From sequence record NC_026014.1: a DNA stretch of 35,814 nucleotides. One strand, given 5' to 3'. This document shows positions 1-35,814 of this stretch, piece after piece. The position numbers were made by a program, and so were the translations under genes. Under the pieces are notes generated by a model that was not told where the DNA came from, searched no databases, and saw only the letters and a list, made by a program, of their open reading frames with translations. The stretch comes from Escherichia phage P88. Within the stretch, counting starts at the first letter, position 1. Each line of letters begins with the position of its first letter.

Positions 1-107
1 GCCACCCGAAGGTGACATGAAGGAGGCCGAGCACACTGGCCTCCCTTTGATATATCAAATAGTTACATTAATACACATAGTCTTAAGTGGGCTTATTTAG
101 TCCTATT

Positions 108-8855: not shown

Positions 8856-9815
8856 ATGAAAATTTGTATCGACGACGGCTCCACCAACATCAAGCTGGCA
8901 TGGACTGAGAACGGCGAACGCCGCAACGCCATCAGCCCGAACAGCTTCAAGTCGGAATGGTCTGCGCCGTTCGGCGGCACGCAGCCCGCGAACTACATGC
9001 TTGATGGCGTGCGCTATGGTTTTGATCCGGTCAGCGATCGCTTTGTCCAGACGACCGACACGCAATACCAGTACAGCGATGTAAATGTCATTGCCATTCA
9101 TCACGCGCTGGTCAAATCAGGCATCACGCCACAGGAGGTGGATGTGGTTGTCACCCTGCCACTGAGCGAGTATTTCGACACAAACGCACAGCCGGACATG
9201 GCCAACATCAACCGCAAAAAAGCGAACGTTATGCGCCCGGTGGAGTACCAGAACGGCGAAGCATTCACTATCCGTAACGTGCGGGTTATGCCTGAATCCA
9301 TTCCGGCTGGCTTTAAAGCACTGGCTGACATGAGTCCGTTTGAATCCCTGCTGATTGTGGATTTAGGTGGAACCACGCTGGATGTGGCAAAGGTTCAGGG
9401 ACAACTGGCAGGTATCAGCCAGGTGTTTTGCGATCCACACGTAGGCGTTTCCCTGATGGCCGATGCAGTACTGTCGGTGATGGCCACTAACGGTATGCGT
9501 ACCAGTCACCACATCGCCAATACCATTATCGAACATCGCCATGATGAAGCCTGGCTGCGCCAGCACATCCACAATGACGCGCATTACGCCAGCCTGATGG
9601 CGGTTATTCGTGAAAAGGAAGAAACACTGAAACAACGCGTGATCCGCGCGCTGGCGGGTTTTTCGGGTTACGGGCGGGTGATGGTTGTCGGTGGCGGGGC
9701 GGAGATTGTGGCACCCGCTATCCGCGAAGCCTGCGGAGTTAATGCGACTTTCATCGCGGACGGGGTGCCACAGTTTGCTCTGGTTAATGGGCTGTACGCA
9801 ATGGACAAGGAGTAA
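8856..9815 (+). CDS. parM: ParM/StbA-like actin-type ATPase (type II partition motor)
   Basis: 319 aa; N-terminus MKICIDDGSTNIKLAW...ISPNSFKSEW co-linear with plasmid R1 ParM (MLVFIDDGSTNIKLQW...ISPNSFKREW, from memory); also QYSDVNV, IVDLGGTTLDV, VMVVGGGAE. Confidence 0.9.
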   Translation: MKICIDDGSTNIKLAWTENGERRNAISPNSFKSEWSAPFGGTQPANYMLDGVRYGFDPVSDRFVQTTDTQYQYSDVNVIAIHHALVKSGITPQEVDVVVTLPLSEYFDTNAQPDMANINRKKANVMRPVEYQNGEAFTIRNVRVMPESIPAGFKALADMSPFESLLIVDLGGTTLDVAKVQGQLAGISQVFCDPHVGVSLMADAVLSVMATNGMRTSHHIANTIIEHRHDEAWLRQHIHNDAHYASLMAVIREKEETLKQRVIRALAGFSGYGRVMVVGGGAEIVAPAIREACGVNATFIADGVPQFALVNGLYAMDKE

Positions 9816-9819
9816 ACCA

Positions 9820-10131
9820 ATGACGACACCAACCAGACGGATAAGTTTCTATCTGAAGCCCGCCGCCGTCAAGAACGAAGGCGAAGCATGCGCCTGGCTG
9901 GACAGCCTTACACCAGAAGCCCGCAAAAGCGGCCAACGTGTGGCTTTTCTGGCCGGGCTGGCACTTCTGAAAATGAATCCGGCAGAGGCTTACCGACTGG
10001 CTGCATGGGCTGACGATGAGGCGTTATCAGTGACACAAACCAGGACAGAACGCCCCGCGTCACAGCCAGTACCAACCACACAGATAACCAGTCGGATGGC
10101 CGGAAATATCAGGGCGTTATTTCCCGAATAA
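9820..10131 (+). CDS. parR: ParR/StbB-like centromere-binding adaptor
   Basis: 103 aa from the ATG 4 nt after the parM stop; RRISFYLKP...LDSLTP...RVAFLAGLALLKMNP parallels R1 ParR (RRTIAFKLNP...LDSIPQ...AALTAGLALYRQDP, from memory). Confidence 0.7.
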   Translation: MTTPTRRISFYLKPAAVKNEGEACAWLDSLTPEARKSGQRVAFLAGLALLKMNPAEAYRLAAWADDEALSVTQTRTERPASQPVPTTQITSRMAGNIRALFPE

Positions 10132-10194: not shown

Positions 10195-10527
10195 ATGCAA
10201 CACATTGACAGAGAAAAAGCGCAGCGACTGATTGAGCGGATGGAAGCGCTGGCGAAAGAAGAAAATGTCAACATCCAAAAAATAGCTGAATGTGGCCAGA
10301 TAGTTCTTCGTCGTGAAAAAGACCTCAAACAACTGATGTCTGGCGAAACCAGCAAAACATGGACTTCAGGCGAGGAGACGATTTATTGCAGCTTCTGCAA
10401 TAAATCTCAGTACGAAGTCACAAAGGTGATTGCCGGACCGTCTGTTTACATCTGCAATGAGTGCGTGGATTTGTGCAATGAAATTATCAGGAGAGAAGTG
10501 ACAGACAAAAAGGGAAAAAACGCATGA
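10195..10527 (+). CDS. Small protein with C-terminal ClpX-type C4 zinc-binding domain
   Basis: 110 aa; C-terminal [39 protein letters not shown] has the C-x2-C-x18-C-x2-C spacing and roughly 80% identity to the E. coli ClpX N-domain as I recall it; no AAA+ module. Confidence 0.8.
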
Positions 10528-25415: not shown

Positions 25416-25949
25416 TCATTCTGGTTGTTCTGGAAACGTTACTGGCAGGCTGGAGGTGTCTGTGGATTCGACCTTCTGCGCATAGAGCATCCACTCGGTT
25501 AATTTTTGTTTATTCTCGTCGGGAATGATACCCAGCCGTAGCTGTGAGTCCCATAGCTGGGTTTTATCCCTGACAAGTTGCAACAGGCTTTGCTTTTCAT
25601 TCTCTGCCTGCTGCCTCTGTTCCTCCTCGGTATAAGTTCGCTTTATCACTACGCCATCTTTGAACATCCATTTACCCGAAATATCAGCCCGGCGATTTGC
25701 TGTAATATCAGGTAATTCAACGACGCTTGCGCCTTCCGGATTAATTGCTGAAACATCCTTTTCAATACAAATAATAACGCCGTTATGGTCATAGACCATT
25801 TTCAAAGTGTCTGGCTGGAAATTCTTTTGTTCCTCATACCAGTTTTTTCCATCATCTGAATAAAGCCATTTGATGTTAAATTGCTTTGTTAGCTGGTATT
25901 GCTCTTTTGTTTTAGGGTTGCCAGCAGTAATGTTTTTTAAGTGCATCAT
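25416..25949 (-). CDS. Alternative tail fibre assembly chaperone (G')
   Basis: 177 aa; N-terminal half almost identical to G, divergent C-terminal half; convergent with G. Confidence 0.9.
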   Translation of the reverse strand: MMHLKNITAGNPKTKEQYQLTKQFNIKWLYSDDGKNWYEEQKNFQPDTLKMVYDHNGVIICIEKDVSAINPEGASVVELPDITANRRADISGKWMFKDGVVIKRTYTEEEQRQQAENEKQSLLQLVRDKTQLWDSQLRLGIIPDENKQKLTEWMLYAQKVESTDTSSLPVTFPEQPE

Positions 25950-25951
25950 CG

Positions 25952-26914
25952 TTAAATACTCCCCGCGTTATACCACGTCCCATTAATGCAATACTGAATT
26001 GGCCTTGCCTGAGTTGTATCAATTAATTCATCACGGTTTCCGTTAACTGAACCCGTAACGACATAACCTGACCTGTCAGACCAGCCGGGGCCATTCCATG
26101 TCTGAACAGATGACAGACCGCCAAGGCGAATACCTGTAATAAACCTTGAGTTACATTCTGCCTGCGTGTATGCACCAACATCTCCCGCAGAGGGTTTGCG
26201 GGTCGTGGTGTAAAACTCTGACCAGTCAGCCTCAAATCCATAACCATCACGCGCTGAACGATAAAAAATACCGCCGTTCCTGTAATTCACGCGGAACTGT
26301 ACAGCAGGGCAGCTCCCCGTATTCATATTGAAGTGGAGGATTAATGTCGATGCGCCACCAATGTTTGCGTTATAGACCCCGCTATTCCAGTTCCAGCCAA
26401 CAGCTTTATCATTTCCGACAGTGCTTCCTGTTTGCCCTAAAGCAAATGCAGGTTGTTGATTTTTCGTGTTGTAGTCTCGTCGCCAGCCAGGAGCATAAGC
26501 ATCACCATGATTAATATAAGTGAATTGAGCGTTAGTAATTCCGCCACCGCTGGACGTGCTCGGCGTGGTAACGCGTATGGTCATTGCGCCGCGAGTGCCA
26601 ATAACTTCCACCACAGCACCTGCAAGACAAATATTTCCGCAACCTGTATCTGTAATGACCTTATTATTTGCATAAGCCCATGAGCCTTTGCACATCCAGT
26701 AAGGATGGTTAAATGCTCCCTGACTCTCCAGCCACGAAATAAATTGCGCGGTTGTCCAGACCTGACTATCGCCACCAATATTCAGCCATGCGCTATATGC
26801 GCGGCAGGCCCCAATATTTTTGGTGAAGGTATCTTTTCCCGGAATATCTGCGCCGTTCTGGTTTTTCTGTAATGCGCCAGAAGCCTGATTTACCGTTTCC
26901 TGTAAACCGAGGTT
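25952..26914 (-). other. Alternative tail-fibre C-terminal segment (Hv'), start-less, fused to H after inversion
   Basis: Minus-strand frame is open from the right crossover site; my translation reads NLGLQETVNQASGALQKNQNG... across the site, matching H at YLGLQETVNRAGNAVQKNG; ends ...RPIQYCINGTWYNAGSI like H. Confidence 0.75.
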
Positions 26915-26922
26915 TTAGATAA
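26897..26922. repeat. Right crossover site of the invertible segment (gix/hix/cix-like, 26 bp)
   Basis: TTCCTGTAAACCGAGGTTTTAGATAA, about 55 bp upstream of the invertase start; close to the Gin/Hin site consensus as I recall it. Confidence 0.75.
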
Positions 26923-26976
26923 TGGCCGTTTCTGACCTGCATGGCATGATTTACGCTTTTGGACGGGAGATTCAGC

Positions 26977-27564
26977 GTGCTGATTGGCTATGTAAGGGTA
27001 TCAACAAATGACCAGAATACAGACCTGCAACGAAACGCTCTTGTTTGTGCAGGATGTGAACAAATATTTGAAGATAAATTAAGCGGGACAAAGACAGACC
27101 GACCGGGATTAAAACGCGCTTTAAAGCGCCTTCAAAAAGGTGACACGCTGGTTGTCTGGAAACTGGATCGCCTCGGGCGAAGCATGAAACATCTGATTTC
27201 TCTCGTCGGGGAACTACGGGAGCGAGGGATTAATTTTCGCAGTCTGACCGACAGCATAGATACATCTTCTCCAATGGGGCGTTTTTTCTTCCACGTGATG
27301 GGTGCCCTGGCTGAAATGGAACGTGAATTAATTGTTGAACGTACACTGGCCGGACTGGCAGCAGCGCGCGCACGGGGGCGCACAGGCGGACGTCGCCCGA
27401 AGCTGACAAAAGAACAGCATGAGCAAATAGCAAGGCTGATTAAAAACGGTCACGACAGAAAACAACTGGCAATAATTTACGGCATTGGTACATCGACGAT
27501 TTATCGTTACCACCCCGCAGGAGAATCAAGCGGAACAATAGAGAAGAGTCAGAAAACAAAATAA
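26977..27564 (+). CDS. Serine DNA invertase (Gin/Cin/Pin/Hin family)
   Basis: From the GTG start the product begins MLIGYVRVSTNDQNTDLQRNAL... (catalytic Ser in VRVSTNDQ), near-identical to the Gin/Pin N-terminus as I recall; C-terminal HTH. The track ORF starts at a TTG at 26959. Confidence 0.9.
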   Translation: MLIGYVRVSTNDQNTDLQRNALVCAGCEQIFEDKLSGTKTDRPGLKRALKRLQKGDTLVVWKLDRLGRSMKHLISLVGELRERGINFRSLTDSIDTSSPMGRFFFHVMGALAEMERELIVERTLAGLAAARARGRTGGRRPKLTKEQHEQIARLIKNGHDRKQLAIIYGIGTSTIYRYHPAGESSGTIEKSQKTK

Positions 27565-34475: not shown

Positions 34476-34736
34476 ATGTTCCGTTGTCCGCTTTGTGGCG
34501 CATCTGCCCGTATCCGCACCAGTCGTCCGGAAAATGATTCAAACACCGTGCGGCAAAAGTATTACCAGTGTAACAACCTGGAATGCGGCGTATGCTTCTC
34601 AACACTGGAAGCTTTCCATAAATTTACATCGAAACACGCCTCCGGCGTTCACTCATCAGAAGGTATCCCATGGCATGATCTGCCAGCTTCACACAGGGGA
34701 AACAATCAGATGAGTTTGCCTTTACCTCAGAATTAA
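34476..34736 (+). CDS. ogr: Late transcription activator Ogr/Delta family (zinc finger)
   Basis: N-terminus MFRCPLCGASARIRTSR...YYQCNNLECGVCF matches P2 Ogr (MFHCPLCQHAAHARTSR...YHQCQNVNC...) with the C-x2-C ... C-x4-C pattern. Confidence 0.88.
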   Translation: MFRCPLCGASARIRTSRPENDSNTVRQKYYQCNNLECGVCFSTLEAFHKFTSKHASGVHSSEGIPWHDLPASHRGNNQMSLPLPQN

Positions 34737-34927
34737 CAGGCAGAATTGCCGGAGTAACAAAAAAGCGATAGATTACGCGCGGGTGCCTTTCGGCTGATGG
34801 TCGGAGGGAATACCCGAAGGCCAGATGTGGAAAGGCCCCGGAAAACATTTCTGTTTAACCGAGGCCCTAACATATCTACCTTAAGCAAGTGATAGGTTAG
34901 CGCCTCTCCAACAAAGGAGCAAGCGCT

Positions 34928-35068
34928 ATGTCGCAAAAATCGCTTACGGCCATCACGTTCTGCGTGACGGTAATCCTCATCATCTGGATGCTGCACGGTT
35001 CGCTGTGTGAAATACGGATGAGCTTTTGGGGAGCGGAGTTTGCGGCGTTCTTACAGTGTAAGCAGTAA
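34928..35068 (+). CDS. Hok/Gef-family type I toxin (46 aa)
   Basis: My translation: MSQKSLTAITFCVTVILIIWMLHGSLCEIRMSFWGAEFAAFLQCKQ; one TM helix then the LCE(I/V)R...E(V/F)AAF motif of Hok/Gef; AAGGAG SD 8 nt upstream; below the ORF-track cutoff. Confidence 0.7.
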   Translation: MSQKSLTAITFCVTVILIIWMLHGSLCEIRMSFWGAEFAAFLQCKQ

Positions 35069-35145
35069 GGAAACCGCGACGGGGGAGCAATCCCCCGTCA
35101 ATCGGTTGCTAAGGTTGGCTGAAGTGGCACCCTATCTCTCAGACA

Positions 35146-35178
35146 TGAACAACAAACCCGCAGCGTAAAAACTGCGGG
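35146..35178 (+). terminator. Rho-independent terminator downstream of the hok-like gene
   Basis: Stem ACCCGCAG / CTGCGGGT then TTTCTTTTT. Confidence 0.7.
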
Positions 35179-35424
35179 TTTTCTTTTTCCTGCGCACTCA
35201 CGATTTGCGACATTTACAAATATGCGGGGGATAATCAGCACCACCATTAGGCGGACGACAGCGATAAATCCGGTTCAAGCCTAATCGCCACCCTTCAAAA
35301 AAAACCAAAGCGCCTTATTGCAATCAAGGTATAAGCCGAGCAGCTTGGAGTATAACGACATCTGTTACGAATGCTTGCTGGCGCATGGGCGCGATAATAA
35401 AGAATCAGGCGAATACTAACCCAT

Positions 35425-35667
35425 TTAAACATCTGGCACTTTTTTTCGAAAAGTAATCACATAGTACTGAAAAACCTGTGCCTTTCCGCCATTGAAACAT
35501 CCTGGCTGCTCTTCAATACCAATGGTATCAACTCGCTGAAACTCCCAACCTTCAGCAGCCTGCTCATTGACCACCCCCTGAAGATATGCAGCAGCTACGC
35601 CAGACTTATTATCCTTGGCTTTTACAGAAATATTAGGCGGCACCTGAATCATTTTATAGGTATACAT
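35425..35667 (-). CDS. Small conserved hypothetical protein (DUF4177-like guess)
   Basis: 80 aa from the internal ATG with AAGGAG SD; the track's longer ORF starts at a GTG with no SD. Family assignment is a guess. Confidence 0.45.
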   Translation of the reverse strand: MYTYKMIQVPPNISVKAKDNKSGVAAAYLQGVVNEQAAEGWEFQRVDTIGIEEQPGCFNGGKAQVFQYYVITFRKKVPDV

Positions 35668-35814
35668 TACCTGAGCTCCTTTAATAAAAAAGACAGTAAT
35701 AAACGCCCCTAAAACAGCCCGCACATCACGGCGCGGGCTTTAGTTCACTATGGCAATATGTGGACAATGCGAAAAATAATCCATTATTTTTCATTGCATT
35801 ACAGCAGTTTTCGT

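Follow-up and report, generated by a model that had tools for sequence, protein, structure and literature searches.

A probable hok/sok-family type I toxin-antitoxin cassette of the HokA-like subfamily as cargo between ogr and attR in a P88-like prophage

The short open reading frame that follows ogr, the late-gene activator gene, in Escherichia phage P88 raises the question of whether it encodes a true Hok toxin, whether it belongs to the phage or to the bacterial chromosome, and whether it can be expressed with the leader that precedes it. The window analyzed here is the whole stretch of 35,814 nucleotides (sequence record NC_026014.1), corresponding to a complete P2-family prophage with an integrase, an HTH repressor, Cox, a tail-fibre/invertase module, gpD and Ogr, the gpD gene preceding ogr. 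A sequence-only reading had proposed that ogr is directly followed by a type I toxin cassette of the Hok/Gef family, and this was borne out by matches in Pfam, NCBIfam and PHROG together with an Rfam match below the gathering threshold. The locus is very probably a hok/sok-family type I toxin-antitoxin cassette of a HokA-like 46-aa subfamily (cluster 72), carried as cargo between ogr and attR in the right arm of a P88-like (P2-family) prophage. The features on which this assignment is based are listed in Table 1.

Table 1. Cassette features, ogr and the left attachment core, in positions of the window.
Feature	Position	Strand	Basis or remark
attL core GCCACCCGAAGGTG	1..14	.	14-bp direct repeat; attR copy begins one base past 35814
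ogr (late-gene activator)	34476..34736	+	Pfam Ogr_Delta 52.3 bits, cut-off 26.3
Predicted weak hok promoter	34746..34773	+	TTGCCG (34746-51), 16 nt, TAGATT (34768-73); +1 at about G34781; read from sequence
Predicted full-length hok mRNA	34781..35188	+	about 408 nt; putative ends
5' element (tac-like) GGGUGCCUUUCGGCU	34781..34795	+	pairs with 35117-35132 in the MFE structure
Shortened mok-like leader ORF, MWKGPGKHFCLTEALTYLP then stop	34825..34884	+	19 codons; GAAGG at 34815-34819
Predicted Sok-like antisense RNA	34830..34887	-	about 58 nt; putative ends
Predicted Sok promoter	34894..34922	-	TTGCTC (34922-34917), 17 nt, TAACCT (34899-34894)
Hairpin sequestering the hok SD	34898..34928	+	AAGGAG 34914-34919 pairs with CUCC 34906-34909
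hok CDS	34928..35068	+	46 aa; Pfam PF01848, PHROG 251, K-12 HokA identity, dN/dS
GC-rich hairpin directly after the hok stop codon	35077..35100	+	helix 15, 99.1% paired; compensatory changes in 5/9 pairs
3' element (fbi-like) GGCUGAAGUGGCACCC	35117..35132	+	complementary to the mRNA 5' end
Intrinsic terminator	35154..35190	+	stem 35154-35181 plus T run; terminator scan

The peptide encoded by the toxin ORF, MSQKSLTAITFCVTVILIIWMLHGSLCEIRMSFWGAEFAAFLQCKQ, is a member of the Hok family. It matched Pfam HOK_GEF (PF01848) with 30.1 bits against a gathering threshold of 22 (E 3.7e-7) and PHROG 251 with 82.8 bits (E 2.5e-23), and in the NCBIfam search the top model was HokA (NF007290, an equivalog) with 35.8 bits against a cut-off of 89, so that similarity to Hok was found in all three collections. 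By these scores the peptide appears to be HokA-like and not HokA itself; it shared 43% aa identity with HokA of E. coli K-12. The description of a single-pass membrane peptide with the Hok/Gef signature was likewise upheld, with a single hydrophobic stretch at residues ~4–24 (19-residue Kyte-Doolittle means 1.6–2.15). The residues conserved across Hok in a published logo, C16, T18, L30-C31-E32 and E41 (bioRxiv 10.1101/2025.08.07.668861), have their equivalents in C12, T14, L26-C27-E28 and E37 of the window peptide. The strong Shine-Dalgarno (SD) sequence read in front of the toxin ORF was confirmed as AAGGAG at 34914..34919, with the ATG 8 nt further on.

The predicted hok promoter conforms to TTGNNN and TA-A-T, and these elements were kept with equal spacing in aligned relatives with unrelated flanks; the similarity of the cassette to other contexts begins at 34736–34760. 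A consensus promoter scan of the region flagged neither this promoter nor that of the antisense unit. The predicted full-length mRNA gave a minimum free energy (MFE) of −177.7 kcal/mol with a z-score of −7.97 against shuffles. The RNA architecture was examined in 12 assembled relatives from P2-like and lambdoid prophages, Stx phages, an IncI1 plasmid, E. albertii, Salmonella, Klebsiella and Citrobacter, in which Hok is 61–98% identical to the window peptide. A duplex between the 5' and 3' elements was predicted in 12/12 relatives at −22.8 to −31.7 kcal/mol, even though both partners differ in sequence, as shown for UUUCGGCU/GGCUGAAG versus CUUCGACGC/GGCGGUCGUAAG. When the structure of the window mRNA was mapped on the relatives, 87.7% of cells were paired as opposed to 37–45% in slid controls, and 31 pairs had changed on both sides as opposed to 7–20; none of 500 shuffles matched the observed pairing and compensatory values. 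The similarity of the cassette to the Stx-phage copy stops at 35132. RNAalifold paired the 5' end locally (GGGUGCCUUU with GAAAGGCCCC, 34830–34839) in place of the 5'–3' closure, and the two are treated here as alternative pairings of the modeled mRNA; in the literature, mutually exclusive pairing is the basis of the switch from full-length to truncated mRNA in plasmid R1.

The hairpin that would sequester the hok SD was seen in both full-length and 3'-shortened folds, its helix 6 being 91.7% paired in relatives. Downstream of the toxin ORF, the intrinsic terminator proposed earlier was found as a terminator-like hairpin (35154..35181) followed by TTTTCTTTTT, and its helices 17–18 show compensatory changes. 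The closed, covarying mRNA architecture is shown in silico, the transcript ends and their processing being putative. The hok leader elements expected within 34740..34930 were also located there, by the predicted fold, the 5'–3' duplex in relatives and a match of the Rfam “sok” model RF01794 to 34781–34938 on the plus strand (model positions 1–157; E 3.9e-9; 47.9 bits, below the gathering threshold of 59). Both the RF01794 consensus and the K-12 hokA leader, read on its sense strand, start with GGGUGCUUGAG, which shows that the model represents the leader in hok sense; the window match points to a homologous leader. A cassette copy in Salmonella (L020/L021, 1811–2275), at the end of a lambdoid-type prophage beside fieF-pfkA, retains hok, the antisense promoter and, of the two pairing elements, only GGCACCC on the 3' side; the 5' GGGTGCC is missing, and therefore the 5'–3' closure cannot form there.

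A Sok-like antisense unit had been anticipated in the same interval, and the evidence is in its favor: the predicted promoter was kept in 94/94 loci and the predicted RNA adopts a Sok-like fold. Specifically, the −10 was TATCCT in one locus and TAACCT in the other 93, the −35 was TTGCTC in 90/94, and the spacing was 17 nt throughout. TAACCT agrees with the consensus at only 3/6 bases, which is why the consensus scan missed this promoter. The R1 promoter Psok, TTGCGC-17-TATCCT, occupies the same position. The antisense RNA would consist of a 19-nt single-stranded 5' tail, the hairpin GGGCCUCGG...CCGGGGCC and UUUC (−21.5 kcal/mol, z −3.35), and the unit is located within the Rfam sok/hok-leader match. 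One position of the stem (columns C58/A82) forms G.U on the minus strand versus a C.A mismatch on the plus strand, which mildly favors selection on the antisense transcript. The conservation of the antisense promoter could instead stem from the hok SD and the RNA helices encoded by the same bases. The cassette is predicted to express a Sok-like antisense RNA.

The placement of the cassette just past ogr was correct, while its placement at the prophage–host junction was not, the junction lying ~630 bp beyond the cassette, right after window base 35814. Between the cassette and attR there are a yidD-like gene and a DUF4177 gene on the other strand. Across the window and 80 IMG/VR loci, ogr was found ≤700 nt upstream of hok in 78/81 cases. 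The attL core GCCACCCGAAGGTG corresponds to one arm plus the loop of a hairpin, GCCACC-CGAA-GGTGGC, directly past the ytfP stop codon, and integration regenerates this ytfP hairpin at attR, in the bases after 35814 (L001:7385–7400). The yidD-like ORF (window 35295–35432, minus strand, extending to ~35198) stops after 45 codons within a T8 run; with one T removed it gives 77 aa that match YidD (TIGR00278, 68.2 bits), and the longer form is annotated in strain 160-11H1. The short form stems either from a frameshift in the homopolymer or from an error in the sequencing. The DUF4177 (PHROG 12383) gene at 35425–35724 (minus strand) is the last before attR and overlaps, with its 3' end, the first few bases of the yidD-like gene. 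A Leu_leader match at 35711–35794 (E 0.16; 21.7 vs 50 bits) overlaps a minus-strand terminator-like hairpin and was dismissed as chance.

The hok-yidD-DUF4177-attR-ytfP arm was also present in a prophage of another type, in E. coli E7-1N7 (L004, 5001–6070) and TUM9803 (L003), without ogr and with different tail genes (DUF1353, baseplate, YafO toxin). The segment from hok to the att site seems, from such arrangements, to move between phage types as a module.

Elsewhere in the prophage, a ParM/StbA actin-like ATPase is encoded at 8856–9815 on the plus strand (Pfam StbA_N 275 bits, ParM_N 230 bits) and a Plasmid_stab_B (ParR-like) protein at 9685–10131 (+). Together they form a partition pair of the R1 parMRC type in the same integrating P2-family phage as hok/sok, so that both kinds of R1 stability locus, parMRC-type and hok/sok, occur in the window prophage. 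The same ParM (95.9–99.7% aa identity) was found in P884B11, 520873, Shae_phiSM, PhiR44_2, Chuche and a record named Entero_P88. Downstream of the partition genes, a ClpX-type C4 zinc finger (64.5 bits) is encoded by a small ORF (10195–10527, +). A serine invertase (Resolvase plus HTH_7; 26959–27564, +) adjoins oppositely oriented genes for a tail-fibre C-terminal part and tail-fibre assembly (25416–26695, −), and the region 25416–27564 looks like a tail-fibre switching (host-range inversion) module.

The leader is the part of the cassette that departs from what had been expected. A mok-like frame overlapping hok was proposed and is not there: with ATG, GTG and TTG allowed as start codons, the window has no ORF that overlaps the beginning of hok. 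The leader ORF that does exist starts at ATG 34825 in frame −1 relative to hok, which is the frame of mok, and ends at a TAA (34882..34884) placed 43 nt before the hok ATG and 30 nt before its SD. The same leader ORF runs for 60–79 codons across the hok start in L087, L091, L097 and the E. albertii locus L010; at the position of the window's TAA, L087 has TTA and L091 has TCA, and the frame is open again downstream. A long mok-frame ORF was present in 22 of 81 close loci, the other 59 being mok-less, and none was found in the Salmonella, Klebsiella and Citrobacter members examined. Another ORF, 34797..34892 (31 aa), was considered as mok and rejected: it has no SD, it starts inside the 5' stem and its ATG is missing in L012, L013, L014 and L017.

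Three other explanations of the locus were weighed against this material. With only 46 codons, the toxin ORF could be taken for a chance open frame in the spacer after ogr, but this has practically no standing: it is refuted by the matches of the peptide in Pfam, PHROG and NCBIfam, by 68 database homologues of conserved length, by the conserved RNA structure flanking the ORF, and by dN/dS values below 1, which ranged from 0.06 to 0.59 over all pairs among relatives and might be biased by RNA-structure constraints. It is also very improbable that hok is a locus of the host chromosome beside which the phage merely integrated. The adjacency of hok, yidD, DUF4177 and ytfP where the neighboring prophage differs would fit a host locus, but three observations refute such an origin. 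The 14-bp att repeat, found at both prophage ends between ppa and ytfP in strain 160-11H1, encloses the whole window including hok. An empty site rebuilt by placing the core between the 150 nt that precede attL and the 150 nt that follow attR, and hence without hok, yidD and DUF4177, was contiguous at 100% identity in many genomes and ≥80% covered in 5199/5426 complete E. coli genomes (~96%), and therefore the whole window, hok included, is an insertion. Finally, the D-ogr-hok arm is internal in the isolated phages Chuche, Xuanwuvirus P884B11, 500465-2, 520873, PhiR44_2 and Shae_phiSM, and isolated P88-like phages diverge from the window at about 35188, directly after the terminator. The proposal of a phage-borne moron was therefore the right one of the two offered, with the att repeat bracketing hok, hok absent from the empty site and the arm present in isolated phages: the cassette is accessory cargo of a P2-family phage, located between attL and attR.

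More weight belongs to the possibility, still an unlikely one, that the window holds a silenced or decaying copy, in which the nonsense codon in the mok frame uncouples hok so that Hok is not produced and the locus is carried along neutrally, in the manner of the chromosomal hok loci that are inactivated in E. coli K-12, where IS150 disrupts hokA. In R1, mok has to be translated as far as the hok SD or further, and earlier stops abolish Hok translation and suppress toxicity (Le Rhun et al. 2022); by this rule the TAA at 34882, which stops the leader ORF short of the hok SD, means that the window copy would be attenuated, and since there is no intact mok and the hok SD is paired in both predicted folds, it might be poorly translated or not at all. 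Against a dead locus, an intact hok CDS was found in each of the 81 close loci and also in divergent relatives, and dN/dS remains at the values given above even between mok-less lineages (Salmonella, Klebsiella, phage Chuche and the window). Moreover, mok-less copies are the majority and the RNA helices still show compensatory change, and a pattern so common and otherwise so constrained would be unexpected if the locus were dead. Leader-translation coupling of hok would then be either not needed in the subfamily or weakened in the window copy. Because hok is intact in every copy examined and is constrained in mok-less lineages as well, we prefer to infer an active locus with facultative mok coupling in the subfamily. 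A stronger version, that the 46-aa Hok of cluster 72 is expressed with no dependence on a mok frame, is put forward tentatively, as a less likely possibility, because most copies including that of the window are without an intact mok ORF while the toxin is under purifying selection. Under mok-independent expression, the target of the antisense RNA would be a leader with no or only brief translation; the leader might, for example, decay in an RNase III-dependent way, or the antisense RNA might block a site of ribosome standby or of a short leader ORF. If true, cluster 72 would be a natural mok-independent variant of the hok/sok paradigm, and a leader ORF broken in most copies beside a constrained toxin offers a simple test of how general mok coupling is in the family.

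For the active locus preferred here, the mechanism is likely to follow that of R1 hok/sok by homology. The weak constitutive promoter would give a stable mRNA of ~400 nt, translationally inert with its 5' end paired to the 3' element and the hok ribosome-binding site in a hairpin, until slow trimming of the 3' end frees the 5' end to refold. A short, unstable RNA from the opposite strand would pair with the leader (34830–34887), leading to decay or to a block of leader translation until the element is lost or no longer transcribed. Once antisense synthesis stops, possibly upon prophage loss, transcription shut-off by an infecting phage or prophage induction, the stable mRNA would be translated and Hok would insert in the inner membrane and depolarize or kill the cell. 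Prophage retention, abortive infection and help with lysis are candidate roles of the cassette. The cassette is a clean natural example of hok/sok fixed at one position, after ogr, in P88-like phages, where it occurs together with an R1-type parMR pair, and is relevant to the part that type I toxin systems play for prophages.

The window cassette is already known as a gene and as a family. RefSeq annotates the gene as “Hok/Gef family protein”, and the exact peptide is entry 1628 of File S1, cluster 72, in a catalogue of Hok sequences (Escalera-Maurer et al., bioRxiv 10.1101/2025.08.07.668861). Two cluster-72 peptides, 72_1621 and 72_1589, were cloned and tested in that study, whose text names three of 45 peptides as non-toxic, 72_1621 and 72_1589 not being among them (bioRxiv 10.1101/2025.08.07.668861). 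Peptide 72_1621 is the Hok of phage Chuche and differs from the window peptide by one residue (V15A), and 72_1589 is the Hok of the Stx-phage copy. The same authors reported that hok is enriched in prophages, with its role there unknown, and stated that their catalogue deals with the coding sequence only and that Mok, Sok and the mRNA elements were not analyzed (bioRxiv 10.1101/2025.08.07.668861). The linkage to ogr and the mok status of cluster 72 given here are not described there.

The 376-bp cassette was detected in 1545/5426 complete E. coli genomes (28%), at up to 7 copies per genome, and 309 relatives were found in IMG/VR, of which 80 loci were fetched. An alignment-based scan of genome contigs gave no more than 7 loci; the records of three of these bear the names Planococcaceae, Vagococcus and Xanthomonas, and the three are taken to be enterobacterial contamination. 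A copy of the cassette with 73.5% identity is present in a record labeled EDL933 plasmid unnamed1 (NZ_CP124742.1, 212 kb), where it adjoins a type B L31 ribosomal protein gene; the plasmid is labeled non-mobilizable, and the record may be chromosomal sequence mislabeled as plasmid, as is suspected here.

Among the known systems close to the cassette is R1 hok/sok (parB), for which the comparison was made by way of Rfam, Pfam and published work; in a distant search of plasmid DNA no similarity reached the R1 or F hok loci. The two share the toxin family, an mRNA of ~400 nt with 5'–3' closure (tac/fbi), which is predicted in the window, a sequestered SD and a hairpin after the stop codon, and a cis-antisense RNA with a 5' tail and hairpin whose promoter overlaps the hok SD region, again by prediction in the window. 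They differ in the length of Hok (52 aa in R1 versus 46 aa) and in the mok start, which in R1 lies 58 nt before the hok ATG and within the antisense target, whereas the mok-like start of the window lies 103 nt before it and upstream of the target, with the ORF shortened. R1 hok/sok is carried by a plasmid, the window cassette by a phage.

The nearest named chromosomal homologue is hokA/mokA/sokA of K-12, as judged from the best NCBIfam model and the aa identity. A pattern MxQK...W-M...SLCE...AAFL-CK is common to both peptides, and the K-12 locus likewise has GGGTGC at the 5' end of the leader and a GCACCC 3' element; unlike the window cassette, it is split by IS150. Stx phages have a separate copy of the window cassette, with 83% nucleotide identity. 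Another prophage-borne hok/sok locus is hokW-sokW of the Stx2 prophage Sp5 (Takada et al. 2021, PMC8621323). HokW has 51 aa, with MKQQKAM at the N-terminus and DYESEK at the C-terminus (from the primers in PMC8621323), as compared with MSQKSL...QCKQ in the window. With such different termini the window peptide is not HokW, and the label “MokW-like” in phage records is the name of PHROG 251. For hokW-sokW of Sp5, both toxin and antitoxin function were proved experimentally, and the locus was found to speed up lysis and double phage release on induction (PMC8621323). It is the only prophage hok/sok with a tested role and provides a functional precedent for the window cassette.
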